The notes under the pieces: generated by a model | What the model was told of the DNA's origin: nothing | Database searches by the model: none | Seen by the model: only the letters and a program-made list of their open reading frames with translations | Source of the DNA: Ginglymostoma cirratum | Taxonomy: Eukaryota | Reading direction: 5' to 3' | Length of the DNA stretch: 64,000 nt | Assembly: GCA_024137785.1 (NCBI GenBank) | Contig: JAHRHZ010000009.1 | Span: forward strand, 6,063,990 to 6,127,989 | Program-made: the position numbers and the translations under genes | In this document: in pieces, positions 4,985-63,714 of the stretch | How positions within the stretch are numbered: position 1 is the stretch's first letter | Layout: the number at the start of each line of letters is the position of its first letter

Positions 4985-6700
4985 TTCATAGAGTCATATA
5001 CCATGGAAAAAGACCCTTCGGCCCAACCAGTCCACTCCGCACATAATTCCAAACTAAACTCGTTCCCACTTGCCTGCCTCTGGCCCATATCCATCTAAAT
5101 CTTTCCTATTCATGAAATTATCCAAATGTCTTAAACATTGTAATTGTGCTTATGCCCACCACTTCTGAGGAAGCTCATTCCACATGTGAACCACTCTCAA
5201 TGTTTAAAAAAAAATGCCCCCATGTCTCTTTAAATCTCTCTCTTCTCAGTTTTAAAAATGTGCCTCCTAGTCTTGAAATCCCCATCCTATGGAAAAGACA
5301 CATACCATTAACCCTATCTATACCTCTCATGATTTTATAAACTTCTATAACATCACCCCTCAACCTCCTACGCTCCAGACGAAAAAGTCCCAGCCTATCC
5401 AGCCTTTCCTTCATAATTTAAACCTTCCGTACCAAGCCACATCCTGGTAAATCTCTTCTGAATACTGTCCAGCTTAATAATATCCTTCCTGTAACAGGGT
5501 GACCAGAACTGCACACAGTACTCAGAAGAGGCCTCATCAATGTACTGTACAACCTCAAAATAAGGTCCCAACCTCTATACTTAAAGGTCTGAGCAATGCA
5601 GGCAAACGTGCTAAACACCTTTTTAACCACCCTGTCTCTATGTGATGCAAACTTCAAAGAATTATGTACGTGCATACCTACATCCGTTTGTTCCACAACA
5701 CTACCCAATGCCCTACCATTAACTGTATAAGTCCTACCCCTGCTTATTGTACCAAAGTGCAATACTTCCCATTTATCAAAATTTAGCTCCATCTACCATT
5801 TTTTAGCCCAATGACCCATTTGATCAAGATCCCTTTGTAATCTTAATCCTAGACAGAGAAGACGATTTTCCACGACACCAATTTTGGTGTCATCCACAAA
5901 CTTACTGATCATGTCTTCTATATTCTCCTCTAAACCATTTGTATAGATGACAAACAAAAGAGGACCCTGATGCCAGCCCTATGGAACACCACTGGTCACA
6001 GACCTCCAGTCCGAAAAGCAACCCTCCACCGTTACTCTGTCTCTTGCTGTTAAACCAATAATATAACAACTGGCTGGCTCATCCTGAATCCCATGTGACC
6101 TGACTTCAGTTCTTAGTCTACCATGCGGAACCTTGTTAAAGGCTTTACTAAAGTCCAAGTAAACAACATCTATTGCTTTGTCCTCATCAATCTTTTTTGG
6201 TAACTTCCTGAATAAAAGATCTTAATCAAGTTTGAGATACACAGTTTTCCTTGCTCAAAGCCATGCTGACTATCCCTAATCAACTTTTACCTCTCTACAT
6301 GTCCATAAGTCTTATATTTTAAAACAGCAATTTACCCACAACCGAAGCCGGAGACACAGCTCTATAGTTCCCCAGAGTTTCCGTATAAACCTTCTTAAAC
6401 AAAGGTACAATATTAGCCACCCTCCAGTCATGAGGCACCGCACCTGTAGTTACAGATGATGCAAATATTTCTGCAAGGGGTCTTGCTATTTTCTCCCTTA
6501 CTTCCCACAACGTTCTGGGATACGTTAGATCAGGTCCCAGAGATTTAACTACTTTTACATTCTACAGATCTTCTTGTTCTGTCATGTGAACTGTTTTTAA
6601 AACATCAAAATTTATTTCCCTGCATTCTTTAGCCTCAATTTCTTTCTCCACAGTAAAAACTGAAACAAAATATTCATTTAGTACCACTCCCATCTTCTGG
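4985..6700 (-). mobile_element. CR1-type LINE, 5'-truncated, frameshifted RT
   Basis: ORF fragments with CR1 RT motifs: DWRVANIVPLFKK (6319-6510), FDKWEVLHFG (5418-5792), ERLDRLGLFRLERRRLRGDVIEVYKIMRG (5175-5414). Confidence 0.92.
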
Positions 6701-6822
6701 AGTTTAACACTTTATATTATATGTTTCAATGGATTACTTTAGTAACTTAACACCAAATCTTATAATTTTGAAATTCCCTTCCGACATCTGTCACACTTTT
6801 TGGACACTTTCTTAAAACCTTT

Positions 6823-7058
6823 AAAAAATCTAAGAACTGTGGATGCTGGAGATCTGAAACAAAAACAGAAATTGCTGCTGAACTCCAGCATGTCTGGGAA
6901 CATCTGTGGAAAGAGAAACAGAGTTAACATCAGAAGTCCGGTGGCTCTGCTTCAGGACATTCTGAAACAGGTCACTGGTTCTGAAATTTTCATTTTGCTT
7001 TCTCTCCACAGGTGCTGCTTGACATAGAGTTTCTCCAGCAATTTCTGTTTTTTTTTGT
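6823..7058. mobile_element. Penelope-like inverted-pair element (diverged family B variant)
   Basis: aaaaacagaaattgctg...catctgtgga is complementary to tccacaggtg...cagcaatttctgttttt; same architecture as 1519-1799 and 45815-45988. Confidence 0.6.
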
Positions 7059-13232: not shown

Positions 13233-13373
13233 ATATACAATATGCATTATAGCATGAGCATCAATGGAAAGATAAAGGATGGATCTTTGGAAATTGACAC
13301 TGAGAACAACCTTGAAACATTCAGGACTGGAAGTGGCAGTGAAGAGGCAGTGGAGGTTCATGATTTTCAGACT
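13233..13373 (+). CDS. CNMD: Chondromodulin (CNMD/LECT1) coding exon, equivalent to human exon 3 (region leading into the BRICHOS domain)
   Basis: ttgcag|ATA...ACT|gtaagt; 141 nt, phase 0/0. Encodes IYNMHYSMSINGKIKDGSLEIDTENNLETFRTGSGSEEAVEVHDFQT, matching recalled human CNMD IYNVHYTMSINGKLQDGSMEIDAGNNLETFKMGSGAEEAIAVNDFQN. Confidence 0.97.
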
Positions 13374-19519: not shown

Positions 19520-20073
19520 TGTATCAGAGATAAAAGGTACTGCAGATGCTGGAGAATCCGAGATAACAAGCGTGGGGCTGGATGAACACAGCAGGNNNNN
19601 NNNNNNNNNNNNNNNNNNNNNNNNNNNNNNNNNNNNNNNNNNNNNNNNNNNNNNNNNNNNNNNNNNNNNNNNNNNNNNNNNNNNNNNNNNNNNNNNNNNN
19701 NNNNNNNNNNNNNNNNNNNNNNNNNNNNNNNNNNNNNNNNNNNNNNNNNNNNNNNNNNNNNNNNNNNNNNNNNNNNNNNNNNNNNNNNNNNNNNNNNNNN
19801 NNNNNNNNNNNNNNNNNNNNNNNNNNNNNNNNNNNNNNNNNNNNNNNNNNNNNNNNNNNNNNNNNNNNNNNNNNNNNNNNNNNNNNNNNNNNNNNNNNNN
19901 NNNNNNNNNNNNNNNNNNNNNNNNNNNNNNNNNNNNNNNNNNNNNNNNNNNNNNNNNNNNNNNNNNNNNNNNNNNNNNNNNNNNNNNNNNNNNNNAGGCC
20001 CGAAACGTCAAGTTTTCCTGCTCCTATGATGCTGCTTGACCTGCTGTGTTCATCCAGCCCCACACCTTGTTAT
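19520..20073. mobile_element. Young Penelope-like family A inverted-pair element spanning an assembly gap
   Basis: gataacaagcgtggggctggatgaacacagcagg [gap] ...cctgctgtgttcatccagccccacaccttgttatc are mutually complementary. Direct repeat cactgttttataat at 19506-19519 and 20074-20087. Confidence 0.75.
19596..19995. other. Assembly gap (400 N)
   Basis: Run of N; same length as the second gap, so probably a fixed placeholder. Confidence 1.
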
Positions 20074-20324
20074 CACTGTTTTATAATATTCACATTATGC
20101 AATAATGTACTGTGAGAAAGTCATCGAAGCACCTTCTGATTTTAATAACTAGAGAACATCAGGTCAATTGACGGATTGCTTGAAAATGTTCTTTGCAAAA
20201 TGAATTTTGAGATTTTAGAAAGGAAGAACAGACTTGTTTTCATGCACAGTTTCTTTAAGCATGCTTGTACCTCATGGTATCCTACCGCACAATCACATCT
20301 CTGCGAAGGTAAAGGAGAAAATAA

Positions 20325-26708: not shown

Positions 26709-27084
26709 GTAAGTATTAAATTGCCCTTGAGGCATTCAGGATTACTTTACAAGGATTGTACGCGACAGTTGATGAAATAACAGAGCCTAGATAAGCATGG
26801 GTTTCTGTGCCAGAAACTAATTTAACATGTTAAATAATGCATAAAAGAACTAGAAGCATGCAGCAGATTGTCAGTTGGCACTACAATGCCTGAGTCTCTG
26901 TAACATCTAGGTACTTTAATAAGTTCAAATCTTATGACAATGACTTTGTGTGGAGGGGCTGTTGATTGCGCAGTTATTGATGATATTGTCTGTTTTTTTT
27001 GTGTATATTCAGGATCTTATATGTGACACAACAGAACTGGGTGGTGGTTGGAAAATCAGTACAAAACCTGATTCATCCTTGATA

Positions 27085-27960
27085 AATATAGAATACACCT
27101 AAGCTGGAATGTGTGTTGTGAGAAAGACAGACAATGTCTTCGAGAGGATTTAGACAGGCTTAGTGATTGTGAAAGAACATGACAGATGGAATATAATGTG
27201 AGAAATTGTGAGGTTATCCACTTCGACCTGAAGAACACATGCAGATTATTACTTAAACGATGAGAGGTTGGAAAGCGTAGATATGTAAAGGGACTTGCTT
27301 GTGTGTCCTTGTCAATAAGTCACTGAAAGCTAACATGCAGGTATGGAAAGCTATTAGGATGGCTAATGAAATGTTAGCCATTAACAAAAGAGGATTTGCG
27401 TACAATAGAAGTGAAGTCTTGCTTTAAATATATAGGAGCTTGGTTACAACACGTCTGGACTACTGAGTATCTCAGTAAAGATATAATTGCTGTCGAATGA
27501 GTGCAAAAATGCTTCACCAGACTTAATCCCAGGATGGCAGGACTATCCTATGAAGAGAGATTAGTCAAACTGGGCCTGTATTCTTTAGAGTTCAGAAGGT
27601 GAGACGTGACCTCATTAAAACCTTCAAAATACTCAAAGGGCTAGACAGGGTAGATGGAGGTGAGATATTTCCCTGTTAGGGAGTCTGAAGCCACGAGCAC
27701 AATTTAAAAACAAAGGGATGCCATTTAGGAAGAAGGTGAAGAGATGTTACTTTGACTCATAGTGTGGTGAATCTTTGGAATCCTGAACCACATAAGGCTG
27801 TGAAAGCTCATTCTGAGTACGTGTAACGTAGAGATTTGATACATTTTTAATTATCAATGGCAGAAAGGGTTATGATCATGTGGGTAAAAGACATTGAAGT
27901 GTTTGATCAGCCATGATCATACAGTGCAGGCTTGATGGATTGAATGAACTCTTCCTGTTA
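27085..27960 (+). mobile_element. CR1-type LINE 3' portion
   Basis: cagatggaatataatgtgagaaattgtgaggttatccacttc (QMEYNV-CEVIHF-like) and tatgaagagagattagtcaaactgggcctgtattctttagag (YEERL-KLGLYSLE), followed by the 3' tail. Confidence 0.88.
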
Positions 27961-27968
27961 CTTTTGTT

Positions 27969-28199
27969 ATAACAAGGTGTAGAGCTGGATGAACACAGCA
28001 GCCAAGCAGCATCAGAACAGCAGGAAGGCTGACGTTCCTGGCCTAGATCCTTCTTCAGAAAAAATATTTTTTTCTGAAGAAGGGTCTAGGCCCAAAACGT
28101 CAGCCTTCCTGCTGTTCAGATGCTGCTTAGCCTGCTGTGTTCAGCCAGCTCTACACCTTGTTATCTCAGATTCTCCAGCATCTGCAGTTCCCACTATCT
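27969..28199. mobile_element. Complete palindromic Penelope-like family A element
   Basis: ~96-bp arms 27969-28064 / 28069-28164 centred on aaaaaatattttttt, plus a 35-bp extension. TSD ctgttacttttgtt (27955-27968) / ctgttccttttgtt (28200-28213). Confidence 0.8.
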
Positions 28200-29594: not shown

Positions 29595-32275
29595 TCATAG
29601 AGATGTACAGCGTGAAACAGATGCTTCGGTCCAACTTGTCCATGGTGACCAGATATCCTAGATAAATCTAGTCCCATTTGCCAGCATTTGGCCCATATCC
29701 CTCTAAATCCTTCCTATTTATGTACTCATCCAGATGCCTTTTAAATGTTGTAATTGGACCAGCCTCCACCACTTCGTCTGGCAGCTTATTCCATACACGC
29801 ACCACCCTCTGCATGGAAAAGTTGTCCCTTAAGTCTCTTCTAAATATATGCCCTCTCACCTTAACCCTATGCCATCTAGTTTTGGACTCCCCTACCCTGG
29901 GAAAAAGACCTTGCCTATTTATCGTATCCATACCCCTCATGATTTTATAAACCTCGATATGGCCACCCCTCAGCCTCTGACACTGCAGGGAAAATAGCCC
30001 CAGCCTATTGAGCCTCTCCCTATAAGTCAAATCTTCCAACCCTGGCAACATCCTCATAAATATTTTCTGAACCCTTTCTAGTTTCACAACATCCTTCCTA
30101 TAGAAAGGAGGCCAAAATTGCTCGTAATACTCCAAAAGTGGGGTTGAACCAATAACTGTACAGCTGCAACATGACCTTCTAACTCCTACACTCAATGCAC
30201 TGACCAATAAAGGCAAGTATACCAAACGCCTTCTTTACTGTCGTTGCTATCTACGACTCTACTTTGAAGCAACTATGAACCTGCACTGCAAGGTCTCTTT
30301 GCTCAGCAACACTACACAGGAACTTATCATCAAGTGTATAAATCCTGATGTGATTTGCGTTTCCAAATGCAGCACCTCACATTTATCTAAATTAAATTCG
30401 TTCTTCCACTCCTGGGCCCATTGGCCCATCTGATCAATATCCCGTTGTGCTCTGAGGTAGCCTTCTTTGCTGTCCACTATGTCTCCAATATTAGTGTCAT
30501 CTGCAAACTTATAACCAAGCAGTGTGGACCCAGCACCAATCCTTGTGGCACACCGCTGGTCACAAGCCTCCAGACTGAAAAACAACCCTCCACCACAACC
30601 CTCTGTCTTCAACCTTTGAGCTAGTTCTTCCTGTATTCCATGTGATCTAACCTTGCTAACCAGTCTACCATGAGGAACCTTGTTGAACACCTTATTGATG
30701 TCTGCCTAGGTCACATCCACCATTCTGCCCTCATCAGTCCTCCAAATTGCTGCTTCACAGAATTCAATCAAGTTTGTGAGTCACGATTTCCCATGCGCAA
30801 AGCCATGTTAACTATTTCTAATCAATCCTTGCCTTTCCAAATACGTGTAAATCCTGTCCCTCAGGATTCCCTCCAACAGCTTGCCTGCCACTGATGTCAA
30901 GCTGATTGGTCTCTCATTCCCTGGCTTTTCCTTGCCACCTTTCTTAAATAGTGGCAGGACGTTAGCCAACCTCCAGTCTTTCAGCACCTCACCTGTGGCT
31001 ATTGATGATACAAATATCTCAGCAAGGGGCCCAGCAATCACTTCCCTAGCTTCCCACAGAGTTCTAGGGTACACCTGATCAGGTCCTGGGGACTTTTTCC
31101 ACCTTTATGCGTTTTAAGACATTCAGTACCTCCTCCTTTGTAATATGGACACTTTTCAAGATGTCGTTATTTATTTCCCCACATTCTCTATCTTCTATAT
31201 CCTTCTCCACAGTAAACACTGATGCAAAATACTCACTTATTATCTCCCCCATCTCCTGAGGTTCCACACATAGGTGGCCTTGCTGATCTTTAAGGGCCCC
31301 TATTCTCTCTTTCTACTTACTTTTTTGTCTGTAATGTATTTGTAGATTCTCCTTAACCCTATTTGCCAAAGCTATCTCATGTCCGCTTTTGCCCTCTTGA
31401 TTTCCCTCTTAAAGTATACTCCTACTGCCTTTATACTCTTCCAGGGATTCAGATTGATCCCTGCTGCCTATACCTCACATATGCCTCCTTTTTCTTGACC
31501 AAAACCTCAATTTCTCTAGTCATCCAGCATTCATTTCACCTACCAGCCTTTGCCCTTCACCCTAACAGGAACATACTGTCTCTGGACTCTCCTTATCTCA
31601 TTTTTTGAAAGCTTCCCATTGTCCAGCTGTCCCTTTACCTGTCAACGTCTGCCCCCAATCAACTTTTGAAAGTTCTTGCCTAATACTGTCAAAATTGACC
31701 TTCCTCCAATTTAGATCTTTAACTTTTTAAAATTCAGTCTATCCCTTTCCATCACTATTTTAAAACTAATAGAATTATGGTCACTTGCCCCAGAGTGCTC
31801 CCTCATTGACACCTCGGTCACCTGCCCTCCTTCATTTCCCTAGAGGAGGTCCAGTTTTGCACCTTCTCTAGTAGTTACATCCACATGCTGAATCAGAAAA
31901 TTTTCTTGTGGATGCTTAGCAAATTCCTTTCCATCCAAACCCTGAACACTATGGCAGTTCCAGTCTATGTTTGGAAAATTAAAACCCCCTTCATAATCAC
32001 CCTATTATTCCCACAGATAACTGAGACCCCCTTACAAATTTGTTTCTCAATTTCCTGCTGACTATTGGGGTTTATAGTACAATCCAAATAAGGTGACTAT
32101 GCCTTTCTTATTTCTCAGTTCCACCCAAATAACTTCCCTAGACATGTTCCCAGGAATATCCTCCCTAAGTACAGCCGCAATGTCATCCTTAATCAAAAAT
32201 GCCACTTCCCCTCCTGTCTTGCTCCCCTTTCTATCCTTCCTATAACATCTATACCCTGGAATGTTAAGCTGTCAG
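29595..32275 (-). mobile_element. CR1-type LINE, ~2.7 kb, frameshifted ORF2
   Basis: Successive ORF pieces: KDWRLANVLPLFKKG, FNKVPHGRLVSKV, KFADDT, FNLDKCEVLH, YRERLNRLGLFSL, YGPNAGKWD*. The 3' tail is near 29600. Confidence 0.95.
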
Positions 32276-37277: not shown

Positions 37278-37905
37278 TTTGTTTCTATTCATTTTTGGGA
37301 TGTGGGCATCGCTGGCTGGGACCGGCATTTCTTGCCCATCCCAAGTTGTCCTTGAGGAGGTGGTGGTGAGCTGTCTTCTTGAACTGCTGCAGTCCACCTG
37401 CTGTGGGTCGACCCACAATGCTATTGGGGAGGGAATTCCAGGATTTTGAACCAGCAACAGTGAAGGAGCAGCAATATATTTCCAAGTCATAATGGTGAGT
37501 GGCTTGGAGGGGAGCTTGGAGGTAGTGGTTACCCAAATGTCTGCTGCCCTTGACCTTCTATACGGAAGTGGTTTTGCATTTGGAAAGTGCTGTCTGAGGA
37601 TCTTTGGTGAATTTCTGCAGTGCATCTTATAGATAGGACACACTGCTGCTACTGAGTGTCAGTGGTGGAGGGAATGGGTGCTACATATATGGAATGAGCT
37701 GCCGGAGGAAGTGGTGAGGCTGGTACAATTACAACATTTAAAAGGTATCAGGATGGATACATGAATAGAAAGAATTTAGATAGATATGGGCCAAATGCTG
37801 GCAAATGGGACTAGATTAATTTAGGATATCTGTTCAGCATGGACGAGTTGGACCAAAGGATTTGTTTCCATGCTGAGCTCTCTATAACTCTGTACTCTAT
37901 AACAT
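37278..37905. mobile_element. L2-like 3' end (- strand, 37278-37680) joined to a CR1 3' end (+ strand, 37685-37905)
   Basis: ORF 37285-37536 SFTVAGSKSWNSLPNSIV...LQQFKKTAHHHLL is a typical L2 RT C-terminus. ggaatgagctgccggaggaagtgg...gggccaaatgctggcaaatgggactag is the CR1 C-terminus. Confidence 0.8.
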
Positions 37906-39289: not shown

Positions 39290-40420
39290 ATGATTCCCAA
39301 TTGCTTTCAGTTCCATGAGCTTCAACTTTAGTTAAGTCTCTCAGAGGAATTCCATCAAATACCTTCATGAACTCCATGTAAGTTACAAGCATAGGTATTT
39401 CCTGTGCTTTATCTGTTCAAAAAAATCACATTCAGCAGGTATGATCTACCTCTGACAAATCTGTGGTGCTACTCTCCAACCAGCTAAAAATTTTCAAGGT
39501 GTTAAGTCACCAAACCCTTTCTTATAGACTTTTGCAATTTCCCAAAAAGACATGTTGGGTTGACTGGTCTTTATTTCCTTGAACTTTCTCTCATCTTACT
39601 TAAAACGCAGAGTGGCGTGCTCACTTCTCTGAAAAGAACGTTTCCTGAATGGAGAGAATGCTAGAAGTTTATAGGGCATCTGCAACACTCATTACTTCCT
39701 TTGAAACTTTGTGCTGTAAACATCTGATCCTGCTGGATTTGTCATTCTTTAGTGCTGTTTGGTTTCTTCAGTGCCTTAACTTTTTTTCTGGTAATCTTGG
39801 TGAGTCCCTGTTCCTGATACAGTATATATTTCCTTGTGACTGCTGGCATACAGACCTATTTGTTAATTTACTGAGAGCGATTAGTCAGTATGCCTGCCAT
39901 TTCCTTATTTTCATTAACAGCATCATCATTATCCATCTCCAAAGAGCTCCACGTTGCTTGTAACCAATCTTTTTACCCCAATATAATTCCTAATAATCGT
40001 ATGCTTTATTATATCATTTGTTATTTTCATTCATATTCTGTTTTGTAACTCATTGTCTGTTTGTTCTTTGCATTTATTTTCATTCACCAGAATTTTTTTA
40101 TATATATTTTTGTGTACTTGCTCTCTTAGTTTTATTTTGCTTCCTACCTTTCAGCCATTGAATGCAAATTTAGCAACTAGACCTCTGCCTCTCTGGGGCA
40201 TAAACTGGTTCTTTATACTATTAGATTATTTTCTTGCAACTCGCACGTATTGTCTACCGTTTAACCCATTCTCAGTCTTGCATATTTTCTGTTTACAGTC
40301 TCTGCCTCCATCATTTTGAAATCAACCTTAACCAAAATCTGAAGTAATAGCTGTTTCGCCTTGTCCTGTTCAAGCACTAGACTGAACTTGATCATGTCAT
40401 GTTTGCAATTAAGTAAATAT
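39290..40420 (-). mobile_element. Very old CR1-type LINE remnant
   Basis: Decayed reverse-strand RT/endonuclease-like tracts (tcaaataccttcatgaactccatgta; catctgatcctgctggatttgtc). Confidence 0.45.
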
Positions 40421-40818
40421 CCATGCACTGTTTGGCTTCTAATTAAATCTGGCTGTTGCGTTACTCACAGCTCAACCTAATACAACAGTCAGACCGGAAA
40501 AGGGGATTGCTCCTTTTCCTCTTCTTCAGTTGCTCATTTTACTCCGGGAGACAAGTGTAGTGCCTATATGATGTTAAGTTTGTGCAGACAATGATGAATC
40601 TTAAAACACTTTCTAGTGAGTACTGTATTGTTCCTCCAAGCAGCAAAAACGTTGAAGTGCCCAGTGGTCTACTCATCCAGATTCTGCAGCATTGTTTTTG
40701 GCCTGTGCATGCTGCCCAAATATGCCTGGTTTGTAAACTGCAATTATGAAGCCGGCCGGATTATCCCATGTTACCGCTTTCTGGCTTGTTGAGATGACTC
40801 AGATTATGGTAGTGATGA

Positions 40819-41690
40819 TTTAAAGGTGGCTATGGGTCAGGAACTTTTAGGAGTTGAGTTCCTTCCAGAGTGAAATAAATCACTGTTGTACAATGATTTG
40901 TAAGAGACTCTGCATGTAAACATCAGTAAATATATTTAAATACATGAAAATATCAGTGAATATATTTAATCTTGCTGAAGTAAAGCTGCCAGAACAAGAA
41001 CGTGGCTTTGCATCCCATGATGCAGGATGCATTGTATCACTTTTCAGATATTGCACATAATTTCTAAGATATAATGGAATCAAAATATATTTCACTCCTT
41101 CAGCATCCAGCTGCTGTGTGATCACATACAGCACATCACACAGGCCGCTGTGTGATGCAGACTACTGCAAAATGCCACGTCATAACCTACTACTGGTATA
41201 TGGGGCAGCGGCCTGTGTGATGTGCTGTATGTGATCACACAGTAGCTGGATGCTGAAGGAGTGAAATATATTTTGATTCCATTATATCTTAGAAATTATG
41301 TGCAATATCTGAAAAGTGATACAATGCATCCTGCATCATGGGATGCAAAGCCACGTTCTTGTTCTGGCAGCTTTACTTCAGCAAGATTAAATATATTCAC
41401 TGATATTTTCATGTATTTAAATATATTTACTGATGTTTACATGCAGAGTCTCTTACAAATCATTGTACAGCAGTGGAGGAGAGATATTTGGAATCAACCT
41501 GTTCAGAGGTGGTATTATGCATCTGTGGAGCAGGTGGGACTTGAACCTAGGCCTCCACAACCCAGAGGTAGGGACACTATCACAATAGCCCTGACGGTGA
41601 GGGCAGACTGCGTGATTTTACAATTATCACCTATTTCACTCTGGAAGGAACTCAACTCCTAAAAGTTCCTGACCCATAGCCACCTTTAAA
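40819..41690. repeat. Long nested inverted repeat (fold-back)
   Basis: Inner arms 40881-41150 / 41206-41475 (270 bp, 2 mismatches, no indels, 55-bp spacer). Outer arms 40819-40877 / 41632-41690 (59 bp, perfect). Confidence 0.97.
41490..41590 (-). mobile_element. tRNA-derived SINE head fragment inside the right side of the fold-back
   Basis: Reverse complement reads gtgatagtgtccctacctctgggttgtggaggcctaggttcaagtcccacctgctcca, with B box ggttcaagtcc. Confidence 0.6.
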
Positions 41691-41894
41691 GTTACATGTA
41701 GTGTCATCTATGCTGTGCTGTGAAGTTCTAGTTCTGGCAAATTTCTGTGAACCCCTGCTTAGAGAAACAGAAACATCTGACAATGTTGTTTGCTGAGATA
41801 GGGGTGTGGAAACTGCTATGGGTAGATATGGCCTCTTACTGAGGCTCCTTCTGACTATCTCCTCCCTGTTTAAGTAGATTGCCCTCTTCTGTGT

Positions 41895-43061: not shown

Positions 43062-43670
43062 TCATAAAGTCATACAGCATGAAAATAGACCCATCAGCCC
43101 AACTTGTCTGTGCCGACCAGGTTTCCTAAACTGGACTAGTCCCATTTGCCTGTGTTTGGTGCATATCCCTCTAAATATTACCTATTCATGTGCCTGTTCA
43201 AATGTCTTTTAAATGTTATAATTGTACTCACATCTACCACTTCTTCTGGTAATTCGTTCCACGACACCCTTTGTGGAAAAATTGTTGCCCCTCAGGTCCC
43301 TTTTAAATCTTTCCCCCTTCACCTTAAACCTATGTCCTCTAGTTTTGGAATCTCCTACCCTGGGGAAAAGATATTGGCTATTCACCTTATCTCTGCCCTT
43401 CATGATTTTATAAACCTCTACAAGGTCACTCCTCAGGGTCCTGTTCTCCAGGGGAAAATCATCCCAGCCTGCCCAGCCTCTCCTTACAACTCAAACACTC
43501 CAGTCTCAGTAACGTCCTTGTTAATCTTTTTTGCACCCTTTCCAGTTTAATAACATCCTTCCTATAGCAGGGCGACCAGAATTGTAAGCAGTGTTCCAAA
43601 TGTGGCCTTACCAATATCTTGTACGGCTGTAACATGAAGTCCCAACTCCTGTACTCAATGCTCTGACCTA
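43062..43670 (-). mobile_element. CR1-type LINE 3' part (host element, resumes at ~45088-45182)
   Basis: ORFs LVRPHLEHCLQFWSPCYRKDVIKLERVQKR and LFPRVGDSKTRGHRFKVKGERFKRDLRG. Same family as 29595-32275. Confidence 0.9.
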
Positions 43671-45090
43671 TAGGAACATAGGAATTAGGAGTGGGAGTCG
43701 GCAATTCAGCTCTTTAAGCCCCCTCTGCCATTTAACATGATTATGGCTGATCTTGTTCTGGTCTCAACTCCACTTTGCTGCCTGTTCCCCATATCCCTTT
43801 ATCCCGCTTTTCATCAGAAACATATTTATTTCTTTCTTGAATCTGTTGATTGATTCTGCCTCCACTGCTCTCTGTAGCAGTGAGTTCCACAGATTCACAA
43901 CCCTCTGAGAGAAGTAGTTTTTCCTCATCTCAGCTTTAAACCTATCTCCTCTCACTCTCTATCTATGACCTCTTGTTTGAGACTGTTCCACGTCCACCTT
44001 ATTGATCCCCTTTGGCACTTCCTATACTTCCTCTTCATTCTTCTGAACTCCAGCGAGTATAAGCCCAAGTTATTCAAACCCTCCTCATACAATGCCATCT
44101 CATCCCCCGAATCAACCTGGTGAACCTCCTCTGAACTGGCTTCAGTGTCACCACATCCTCCTTCAAGTGAGAAGACTAGAACTGGACACAGTATTTCAAA
44201 TGGTGTATCACTAGCACCTTACATAATTGTAGCACCACTTTTTTCACTTAAATAATCCAGTCCTTTTGTAATTAATGCCAGGAATCCATTTGCCTTTCTT
44301 ATTATCCGCGGCACTTGCATACCAGCTTCCTGCACTGAAAAACTCTGCACTGTTGGGCTTTGAATCTGCTTCGCATTGTTTTCCCAGCCAAAATGGACAA
44401 CTTCACAATTATCCACATTAAACTGCATCTGCCAGATTCTGGCCCATTCTGTTAGCCTATCAATATCCATCTGTAGACTCTTTACCTCCTCATCATTGCC
44501 TGCATTCCTACCTATTTTAGTATCACCAGTGAACTTTGCTATGTTACAATCTGCCCCCGTTTGTGGATCATTTATATAGTTTGTAATTGTTTGAGTTCTG
44601 AAAACTGAACCCTGTGGCACCCCATTAGTTACAGTTCACCATCTAGAGAAAGACCCATTTATCCCAACCTTCTGATTTGTGTCAGTCAACCAATCCTCTA
44701 AACAAGCCAACGCTCTACCCTTAACCCCCGGGATCTAACCTTCTGGATCATACTTTTATGTGGCACCTTGTCACCTTCTGGAAGTCTAGATATACCACAT
44801 CCACTGGATCCCCATTATCTACCTTGCTGGCTGCGTTCTGAAAGAATTCCAACAAGTTTGTCAAGCCCGACTTGCCATTCATGGAATTGAGCTTTGTTTT
44901 TCCAAATGTTCAGTCATCACCTCCTTTATGACTAACTCCAGCATTTTCCTCTACTGCAGAGGTCAAACTAACTGCTCAATTGTTTCCCATTTTTTGCCTA
45001 GCTCCTTCTTTCAGTAGGGGTGTCGCAGCAGCGTGTTTCCAATCCACTGGTACTTTTCCAGAATTCAGGGAAATTTGGAAAATTATAACC
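43671..45090 (-). mobile_element. Second CR1-type LINE nested in the first
   Basis: Has its own 3' tail (taggaacataggaattaggag...) and RT pieces PQGSV, AKFTGDTKIG, WQMQFNVDNCEVVHFG, FSQRVVNLWNSL. Confidence 0.88.
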
Positions 45091-60050: not shown

Positions 60051-60266
60051 ACAGTTCATTGTAGGGATGAATTATTATCTTTACATTGATGTAATACATT
60101 GTACCATGTATTAGTCACACTGTGTTAAAATAGACAGACTTCAAACACATCTAGAAAGTGAAAACTGAGATAACAAGCATGGGGCTGGATGAACACAGCA
60201 GGTCAAGCAGCATCATAGGAGCAGGAAAACTTGACGTTTCGGGCCTAAACCCTTCTGATGAAGGGT

Positions 60267-60666
60267 NNNNNNNNNNNNNNNNNNNNNNNNNNNNNNNNNN
60301 NNNNNNNNNNNNNNNNNNNNNNNNNNNNNNNNNNNNNNNNNNNNNNNNNNNNNNNNNNNNNNNNNNNNNNNNNNNNNNNNNNNNNNNNNNNNNNNNNNNN
60401 NNNNNNNNNNNNNNNNNNNNNNNNNNNNNNNNNNNNNNNNNNNNNNNNNNNNNNNNNNNNNNNNNNNNNNNNNNNNNNNNNNNNNNNNNNNNNNNNNNNN
60501 NNNNNNNNNNNNNNNNNNNNNNNNNNNNNNNNNNNNNNNNNNNNNNNNNNNNNNNNNNNNNNNNNNNNNNNNNNNNNNNNNNNNNNNNNNNNNNNNNNNN
60601 NNNNNNNNNNNNNNNNNNNNNNNNNNNNNNNNNNNNNNNNNNNNNNNNNNNNNNNNNNNNNNNNNN
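60267..60666. other. Assembly gap (400 N)
   Basis: Run of N. Confidence 1.
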
Positions 60667-60715
60667 TGGGGCTGGATGAACACAGCAGGTCAAGCAGCAT
60701 CATAGGAGCAGGAAA

Positions 60716-60751
60716 ACTTGACGTTTCGGGCCTAAACCCTTCATCAGAAAT
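60716..60751 (-). ncRNA. Minimal type I hammerhead ribozyme motif (family A), core intact
   Basis: - strand reads AUUU CUGAUGA A GGGU-UUAG-GCCC GAAA C GUC AAGU; stem I AUUU/AAGU. Activity is untested. Confidence 0.6.
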
Positions 60752-63528: not shown

Positions 63529-63566
63529 AATTTCTGATGAAGGGTCCAGGCCCGAAACGTCAAGTT
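63529..63566 (+). ncRNA. Minimal type I hammerhead ribozyme motif (family A), core intact
   Basis: AAUUU CUGAUGA(63534-40) A GGGU-CCAG-GCCC GAAA(63554-57) C GUC(63559-61) AAGUU; stem I has 5 bp including one G-U. Activity is untested. Confidence 0.6.
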
Positions 63567-63627
63567 TTCCTGCTCCTATGATGCTGCTTGGCCTGCTGTG
63601 TTCATCCAGCCCCACACCTTGTTATCT
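63532..63627 (+). mobile_element. Single-arm Penelope-like family A insertion with 10-bp TSD
   Basis: TSD ctaaagtaat at 63522-63531 and 63628-63637; body nearly identical to 19996-20074. Confidence 0.8.
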
Positions 63628-63714
63628 CTAAAGTAATCCAATGTTCTTTCATGATAAATATTTTCAATACTATATTAATCTGCTTAAAGATATTTAAGTT
63701 GAAGTTAGAGACAT

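Follow-up and report, generated by a model that had tools for sequence, protein, structure and literature searches.

How did a long and nearly perfect inverted repeat come to lie within an intron of the shark CNMD gene, and does the RNA hairpin that it can encode have a function? The repeat is located in a 64-kb stretch of Ginglymostoma cirratum DNA, which is called the window herein. An earlier, sequence-only reading of this DNA offered three explanations for the structure: a very recent inverted duplication, a fold-back element, or a hairpin-RNA locus homogenized by gene conversion. Our analysis leads us to consider it probable that the structure is a real, lineage-specific, and probably neutral inverted duplication that was produced by fold-back DNA synthesis.

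Host gene and organization of the inverted repeat

Five coding exons of CNMD were mapped on the + strand by tblastn with the closest protein, and the last of these exons is 95% identical to its best match, which is a Chiloscyllium plagiosum protein cluster. The last intron extends from position 26709 to 54145 on the + strand, as defined by the mapped flanking exons and by GT..AG ends that can be read directly. These data bear out the earlier placement of the repeat in this intron, where 14,111 bp separate the hairpin from the donor and 12,456 bp separate it from the acceptor.

The inner arms of the repeat (40881–41150 and 41206–41475) are 270 bp each and carry only two differences (40886 T versus 41470 G, and 41113 G versus 41243 T) and no indels. 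Their identity is uninterrupted over at most 226 bp, and a spacer of 55 bp (41151–41205) separates them. A perfect 59-bp outer pair (40819–40877 and 41632–41690) flanks these arms. The earlier reading had every one of these coordinates exactly right, and the inverted repeat is real in this sequence and far above chance. To that first description can be added that the two halves of the hairpin are unequal, because the gap between the inner and outer arms is 156 bp on the right (41476–41631) and 3 bp on the left (40878–40880), and that a 10-bp mini-hairpin (41134–41143 paired with 41148–41157) is present at the left apex. A BLAST search of the region against the 64-kb window gave no further match to the arms (E<0.01), in agreement with the claim that they resemble none of the other repeats in the window.

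The orthologous site in two relatives

Among 24 runs, the best were those of two organisms, designated A and B, with 0.19 and 0.13 of words shared with the window, respectively; none came near full identity. Contigs of four runs, one per organism, were aligned to positions 39700–41205, which include the left flank, the left arms, and the spacer. The other two organisms (C and D) gave only short pieces of approximately 37–57 bp among those listed, with no orthologous cover, and were left out. In A and in B, 30 of 30 bins of this region are covered.

In organism A, one contig (record 28) passes from 59 bp of left flank (40761–40819) through 12 other letters into the spacer (41157–41205), and then changes strand into 41150–40881, which corresponds to the right arm with 10 differences. 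Likewise, one contig of organism B (record 1) carries 1.1 kb of flank up to 40819, followed by 20 other letters and by spacer positions 41168–41204, past which it changes strand into 41148–40881 with 18 differences and a 10-bp gap. From flank to spacer, the joints are recorded as "skips 337" in A and "skips 348" in B. The right inner arm (41206–41475, + strand) is therefore entered by opposite-strand joints at 41150/41205 in A and 41148/41204 in B, on the same contigs as the left flank, and is the ancestral template, which is ordinary intron DNA. The right outer arm (41632–41690, + strand), which is likewise ancestral template, is matched on the minus strand by a separate contig in both relatives, with 4 differences in 59 positions in A and 4 in 50 in B.

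Because a single contig in each relative joins the flank, the spacer, and the right arm, both organisms have the right side as a single copy and no left arm. This is the comparison of orthologous introns that the earlier reading had proposed, and the absence of the left arm from this site in two relatives supports the very recent inverted duplication among the three options. Furthermore, depth over 40924–41025, which serves here for counting contigs and not for estimating copy number, equals that of a single contig (9.7 in A and 9.29 in B) and thus indicates that no further contigs at least 80% alike aligned there. At the level of contig alignments, these results show that the left arm was added as a reversed copy of neighboring single-copy intron DNA. 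Two species and distance-based rooting suggest the polarity of the change, with the insertion being derived in the lineage of the window.

The contig extents also bear on the 156-bp segment that separates the two right arms. The arm contigs of A and B both run 74 unmatched letters beyond the arm, and the outer-piece contigs of both start at the same inferred place, 41526. This pattern fits an ancestral 156-bp segment, in which case the contigs would break inside an ancestral repeat of approximately 150 bp that, judging by these extents, is present in the relatives.

Smaller differences from the relatives are also evident. In organism B, 30 bp of the left flank (at 40693) and 10 bp of the arm (at 41096) are missing. 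The window reads CA at 40468–40469 and at 41056–41057, positions at which A and B both carry TG, and this pattern suggests that an ancestral CpG decayed on opposite strands.

Junctions of the insert

Between the flank and the spacer, organism A has GATGATGCTATG and organism B has GATGCTGTGGCAGAATCCCA. The window reads GCTGTG at 41147–41152 and GCAGAC at 41157–41162. Set against the joint letters of the relatives, both are ancestral, and so the new sequence, a reversed copy of the right-hand region that is absent in A and B, comprises the 327 bp at 40820–41146 (+ strand). The insertion site is a short GAT repeat that lost 0–6 bp, which is at most one or two GAT units.

Homologies at the junctions measure 4, 1–3, and 1 bp. 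The 4-bp homology is formed by the last positions of the inner copied arm (40881–41150, + strand), which are ancestral and could have served for priming: 41147–41150 is the exact inverse of 41206–41209, yielding an inverted microhomology across the loop. This 4-bp match is a composite of both relatives, in that its left half is found in B and its right half in A, with one mismatch on the left. The spacer that forms the loop is ancestral except for 41153–41156, and its match to A starts at 41157, that to B at 41168. These four extra bases, which complete the 10-bp mini-hairpin, are absent from both relatives and match 41218–41221 after a 5-bp common lead-in. They are probably a small templated addition made by quasi-palindrome correction.

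At the other end of the insert, the outer copied piece (40819–40877, + strand) has 1 bp (40819) in common with the flank. This 1-bp sharing between junction and template implies that the TTAA at the left end is copied sequence rather than a target duplication. At the middle junction, the copy skips 156 bp and contains a 3-bp link (40878–40880, + strand). The same 6-mer occurs 15 bp into the skipped segment (chance of approximately 0.13), and the link may represent either filler or a short hop within the segment. A 23-mer spanning the junction had 0 matches among metagenome contigs, which is uninformative.

The skipped segment (41476–41631, minus strand) carries a B-box-like motif on the minus strand at 41537–41547, and the segment is presumably SINE-like. 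A search of Rfam yielded no matching family for it. We considered that its secondary structure might have driven the skip, but its folding is unexceptional (z = 0.19 and -0.16 versus 200 shuffles). The skip likewise does not correspond to a spliced intron, as the ends are not GT..AG on either strand.

Age and constraint of the arms

The two arms differ from one another at 2 of 329 sites (0.6%, 95% CI 0.07–2.2%), whereas the same sequence differs from that of A at 14 of 329 (4.3%; Fisher p = 0.004). Given no conversion, these divergences would place the age of the copy at about one-seventh of the split from A, with wide limits. The insert could be polymorphic in the species. Among the differences listed, A and B agree against the window at 41001, 41056, and 41057, and the window letter occurs in both arms at each of these positions, which indicates that these changes predate the copy.

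The divergence of the arm from the relatives is nearly the same as that of its flank. In A, the values are 14 of 329 for the arm and 50 of 1141 for the flank (4.3% versus 4.4%, p = 1.0), and in B they are 22 of 308 and 87 of 1083 (7.1% versus 8.0%, p = 0.72). As judged by these divergences, the arm is not better conserved than the flank and is unconstrained, of which the 10-bp loss inside the arm of B is a further sign.

A proposed route of formation

If fold-back DNA synthesis generated the insert, the process might have begun with a free 3′ end on the bottom strand near 41147, perhaps provided by a resected break or by a stalled nascent strand. Such an end would fold back over a loop of approximately 55 nt, pair through the 4-bp match between 41147–41150 and 41206–41209, and be elongated through the 270-bp arm with its own strand as template. 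Copying would then jump the 156-bp SINE-like segment and proceed for 59 more bases, and the copied end could be joined to the left flank again through 1 bp of homology. A further templated addition of 4 bp would perfect the 10-bp apical mini-hairpin. An inter-strand switch at a replication fork would be an alternative route that gives the same product and is indistinguishable from the first. The comparison with the relatives demonstrates the direction of copying, and the assignment of the strand and of enzymes is putative.

Several attributes of the insert are those of known mutation classes. The insert is the reverse complement of a nearby fragment, arranged in the order 1-4-3-2 with points at 40819, approximately 41147–41157, 41206, and 41690, and the allele in A and B has the template once without an inverted copy. 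This is a match to the 1-4-3-2 / 3-2-1-4 type of template switch (PMC5453318), a four-point type that makes up 31% of high-confidence human-chimp events (PMC5453318, PMC7954356). Template switches have been argued to be mainly inter-strand (PMC5453318), and those in apes have a median copied length of 12 and a maximum of 128 (PMC7954356). The shark event is not a single switch that copies a short fragment (at most 128 bp in apes): its copy is 327 bp, beyond the ape maximum, and is composed of at least two pieces. One additional jump or more (the 156-bp skip) is required, and this is explicitly outside the four-point model (PMC5453318).

Break-initiated fold-back in yeast provides another close parallel. 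There, the loop is 41 nt, priming uses a 10-bp imperfect match, the capture junction has 0–5 bp, and inserts range from 2 to approximately 150 bp (PMC11724301). As in yeast, the right end in the shark would fold on an inverted microhomology, here 4 bp (the composite of both relatives) over a loop of 55 nt, and would be captured by the left end, here on 1 bp. This class starts from a double-strand break and depends on Pol delta and end joining, a route whose product would match that of an inter-strand switch at a fork. Unlike the yeast events (PMC11724301), the shark copy is longer, is primed by a 4-bp match, includes an internal skip, and occurred in a vertebrate genome, where the enzymes are only putative. 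The shark event works like the template-switch and fold-back classes, and it is a multi-step event rather than a strict four-point one. The class of fold-back mutation is already known, and what is unusual here is the length combined with the internal skip. If it is indeed a neutral scar, the locus offers a clean, datable case of a fold-back templated insertion in a shark.

Alternative explanations for the structure

We must also consider that the repeat might be an artifact of the assembly or library. A chimeric fold-back molecule, or the right-hand region of a second haplotype inserted in reverse orientation, would then have entered the consensus, and the animal itself would have the single-copy arrangement only. 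Removal of the insert restores exactly the arrangement of relatives A and B, and heterozygosity could account for 2 differences in 329 bp. Amplification reportedly creates artificial palindromes, which counts for such an artifact. Furthermore, none of the 24 runs is from the species itself (best word share 0.19), and the new junctions are known from this assembly alone. The two 400-N gaps of the window both fall within copies of a palindromic repeat, and the second gap is bracketed by an exact duplicate of 76 bp (60180–60255 and 60667–60742). This duplicate is probably a scaffolding artifact, and together with the gaps it reveals that the assembly does err at repeats. However, elsewhere the assembly leaves gaps at palindromes rather than filling them, and there is no N inside the feature. 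An artifact would also require that three or four new joins arose in a span of 340 bp on overlaps of just 1–5 bp. Such overlaps are too short for an assembler to invent, from which we infer that the joins must have been in the reads. In addition, both sides of the insert return to ancestral sequence with no more than 6 bp lost. For these reasons, we consider an artifact unlikely, although with an appreciable residual chance.

Another proposal is that the fold-back is old, with its arms kept identical by gene conversion in the lineage of the window, and that it was precisely deleted in A and in B. Closely spaced inverted repeats are indeed unstable, and in yeast this instability drops 300-fold as the spacer grows from 12 to 100 bp (PMC10164571). 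By analogy, the 55-bp spacer may let the hairpin persist in DNA. An inclusion-exclusion estimate indicates that approximately 33–34 of the 49 listed differences of A are common to B, which leaves it possible that A and B are sisters. Yet the window is nearer to A (4.4%) than to B (8.0%), which favors B as the outgroup and means that two clean losses would be required. An old fold-back also leaves unexplained why the 156-bp segment is absent from the left arm alone, and we give this proposal only a very slim chance.

The ends of the repeat also invite an interpretation as a mobile element. The left end has TTAA followed by AGG and the right end has CCT followed by TTAA, resembling the TTAA target and RR termini of Kolobok elements. 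On this interpretation, the structure would be a non-autonomous Kolobok or T2-MITE with long terminal inverted repeats inserted at TTAA, into the right arm of which a SINE was later inserted. Kolobok elements are described as having a TTAA target and RR termini, and T2-MITEs as having AGGRR (PMC6004289). The shark feature is superficially like them in its TTAA flanks, AG termini, and long inverted arms. It differs from them (PMC6004289) in that its right arm is ancestral host DNA and it has neither an empty site nor a family. There is no TTAA duplication with an empty site in A or B, the whole right half of the structure is resident there, the left TTAA belongs to the copied sequence, and in each relative the arm is spanned by a single contig. 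The terminus does start with AG, but it reads AGGTG and not AGGRR. The terminal 20-mer has no second copy within the window at up to 4 mismatches, and neither the contigs of the relatives nor the 64-kb window contains a dispersed multi-copy family. The Kolobok/T2-MITE assignment is contradicted by the single-copy right half of the relatives, which is present without the left TTAA, and we find such an origin scarcely credible. With no empty site and no family, the fold-back element proposed by the sequence-only reading is likewise unsupported. A more general lesson is that an inverted repeat with TTAA/AGG ends can be mistaken for a Kolobok MITE.

Is the RNA hairpin functional?

The inverted duplication that we favor could still have acquired a role after it formed. 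It had been claimed that both arm differences form G-U pairs on the + strand, such that the sense duplex is unbroken. RNA folding agrees: the predicted structure for 40800–41710 has a free energy of -666 kcal/mol (z = -60, 20 shuffles), and its duplex is unbroken. Transitions account for 94 of the 144 listed differences from the relatives, and given this share the chance that two differences are both G-U on the + strand is approximately 11%. The G-U argument is weak.

Perhaps the same origin gave rise to a long-hairpin RNA locus that is only now being born, in which the product of a multi-step fold-back mutation has begun to give small RNAs, or an editing cluster by which CNMD processing is altered. 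The hairpin lies in sense with CNMD and its fold is extremely stable. Moreover, template switches have made intronic miRNA hairpins in primates, where 57 of 6,054 suitable template-switch hairpins are annotated miRNAs with stems of 30–55 bases (10.1101/2023.04.19.537475). Like those, the shark hairpin is perfect, would have formed in one step, and resides in a host intron in the sense orientation. Unlike them, its stem is 270 bp, far beyond this 30–55-base range (10.1101/2023.04.19.537475), and its processing is only putative. Other findings also speak against a function. The arm is without constraint, and both splice sites are over 12 kb away from the hairpin. The mapped CNMD span (window positions 13233–54367) contains ten further inverted pairs of at least 50 bp (73–90% identity), and so the CNMD pre-mRNA is already able to form other duplexes. 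A long hairpin in mouse is poorly diced in somatic cells, lightly edited, and well tolerated (PMC3245926). On balance, we consider a functional hairpin improbable, and nothing points to a function. The hairpin-RNA locus homogenized by gene conversion that the sequence-only reading had listed finds no support, in that no hairpin is present in A or B and the arm diverges at the rate of the flank.

If CNMD is transcribed through the insert, the pre-mRNA would form a long duplex, which might undergo A-to-I editing as a by-product and would then be degraded with the intron. The arms contain 172 adenosines. Should the hairpin prove to be processed, the alleles before and after the event would permit a direct test of how a new long dsRNA is handled in a vertebrate intron, and the relatives would supply the exact "before" allele as a natural control.

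Searches for known RNAs yielded no Rfam match at the gathering level in the whole window. The best miRNA candidate for the hairpin, mir-1421, scored 32 bits against a gathering threshold of 45, and we took this and the hits to mir-3179, SNORD95, and WT1-AS_5, all far under gathering, to be due to chance. A literature search for a hairpin in a shark chondromodulin intron gave none among the matches listed, and the search was a weak one because "shark" also catches "sharka".

Other repeats in the window

Several additional repeats occur in the window. One repeat of approximately 100 bp forms head-to-head palindromes at 27958–28172, 19525–20082, 60160–60751, and 63530–63636, with 90% identity over 197 bp at 27969–28164. 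This repeat, copies of which enclose both 400-N gaps, contains a motif that we take to be the hammerhead core of Penelope-like elements, and the repeat gave no Rfam match at the gathering level. One long repeat is represented by decayed copies at 4986–6710, 29595–31269, 43062–43672, and 37676–37888, some of them oriented oppositely, and their translations resemble what are presumably LINE reverse-transcriptase fragments. A degenerate palindrome at 6857–7056 (71% over 210 bp) is built from a second short repeat family.
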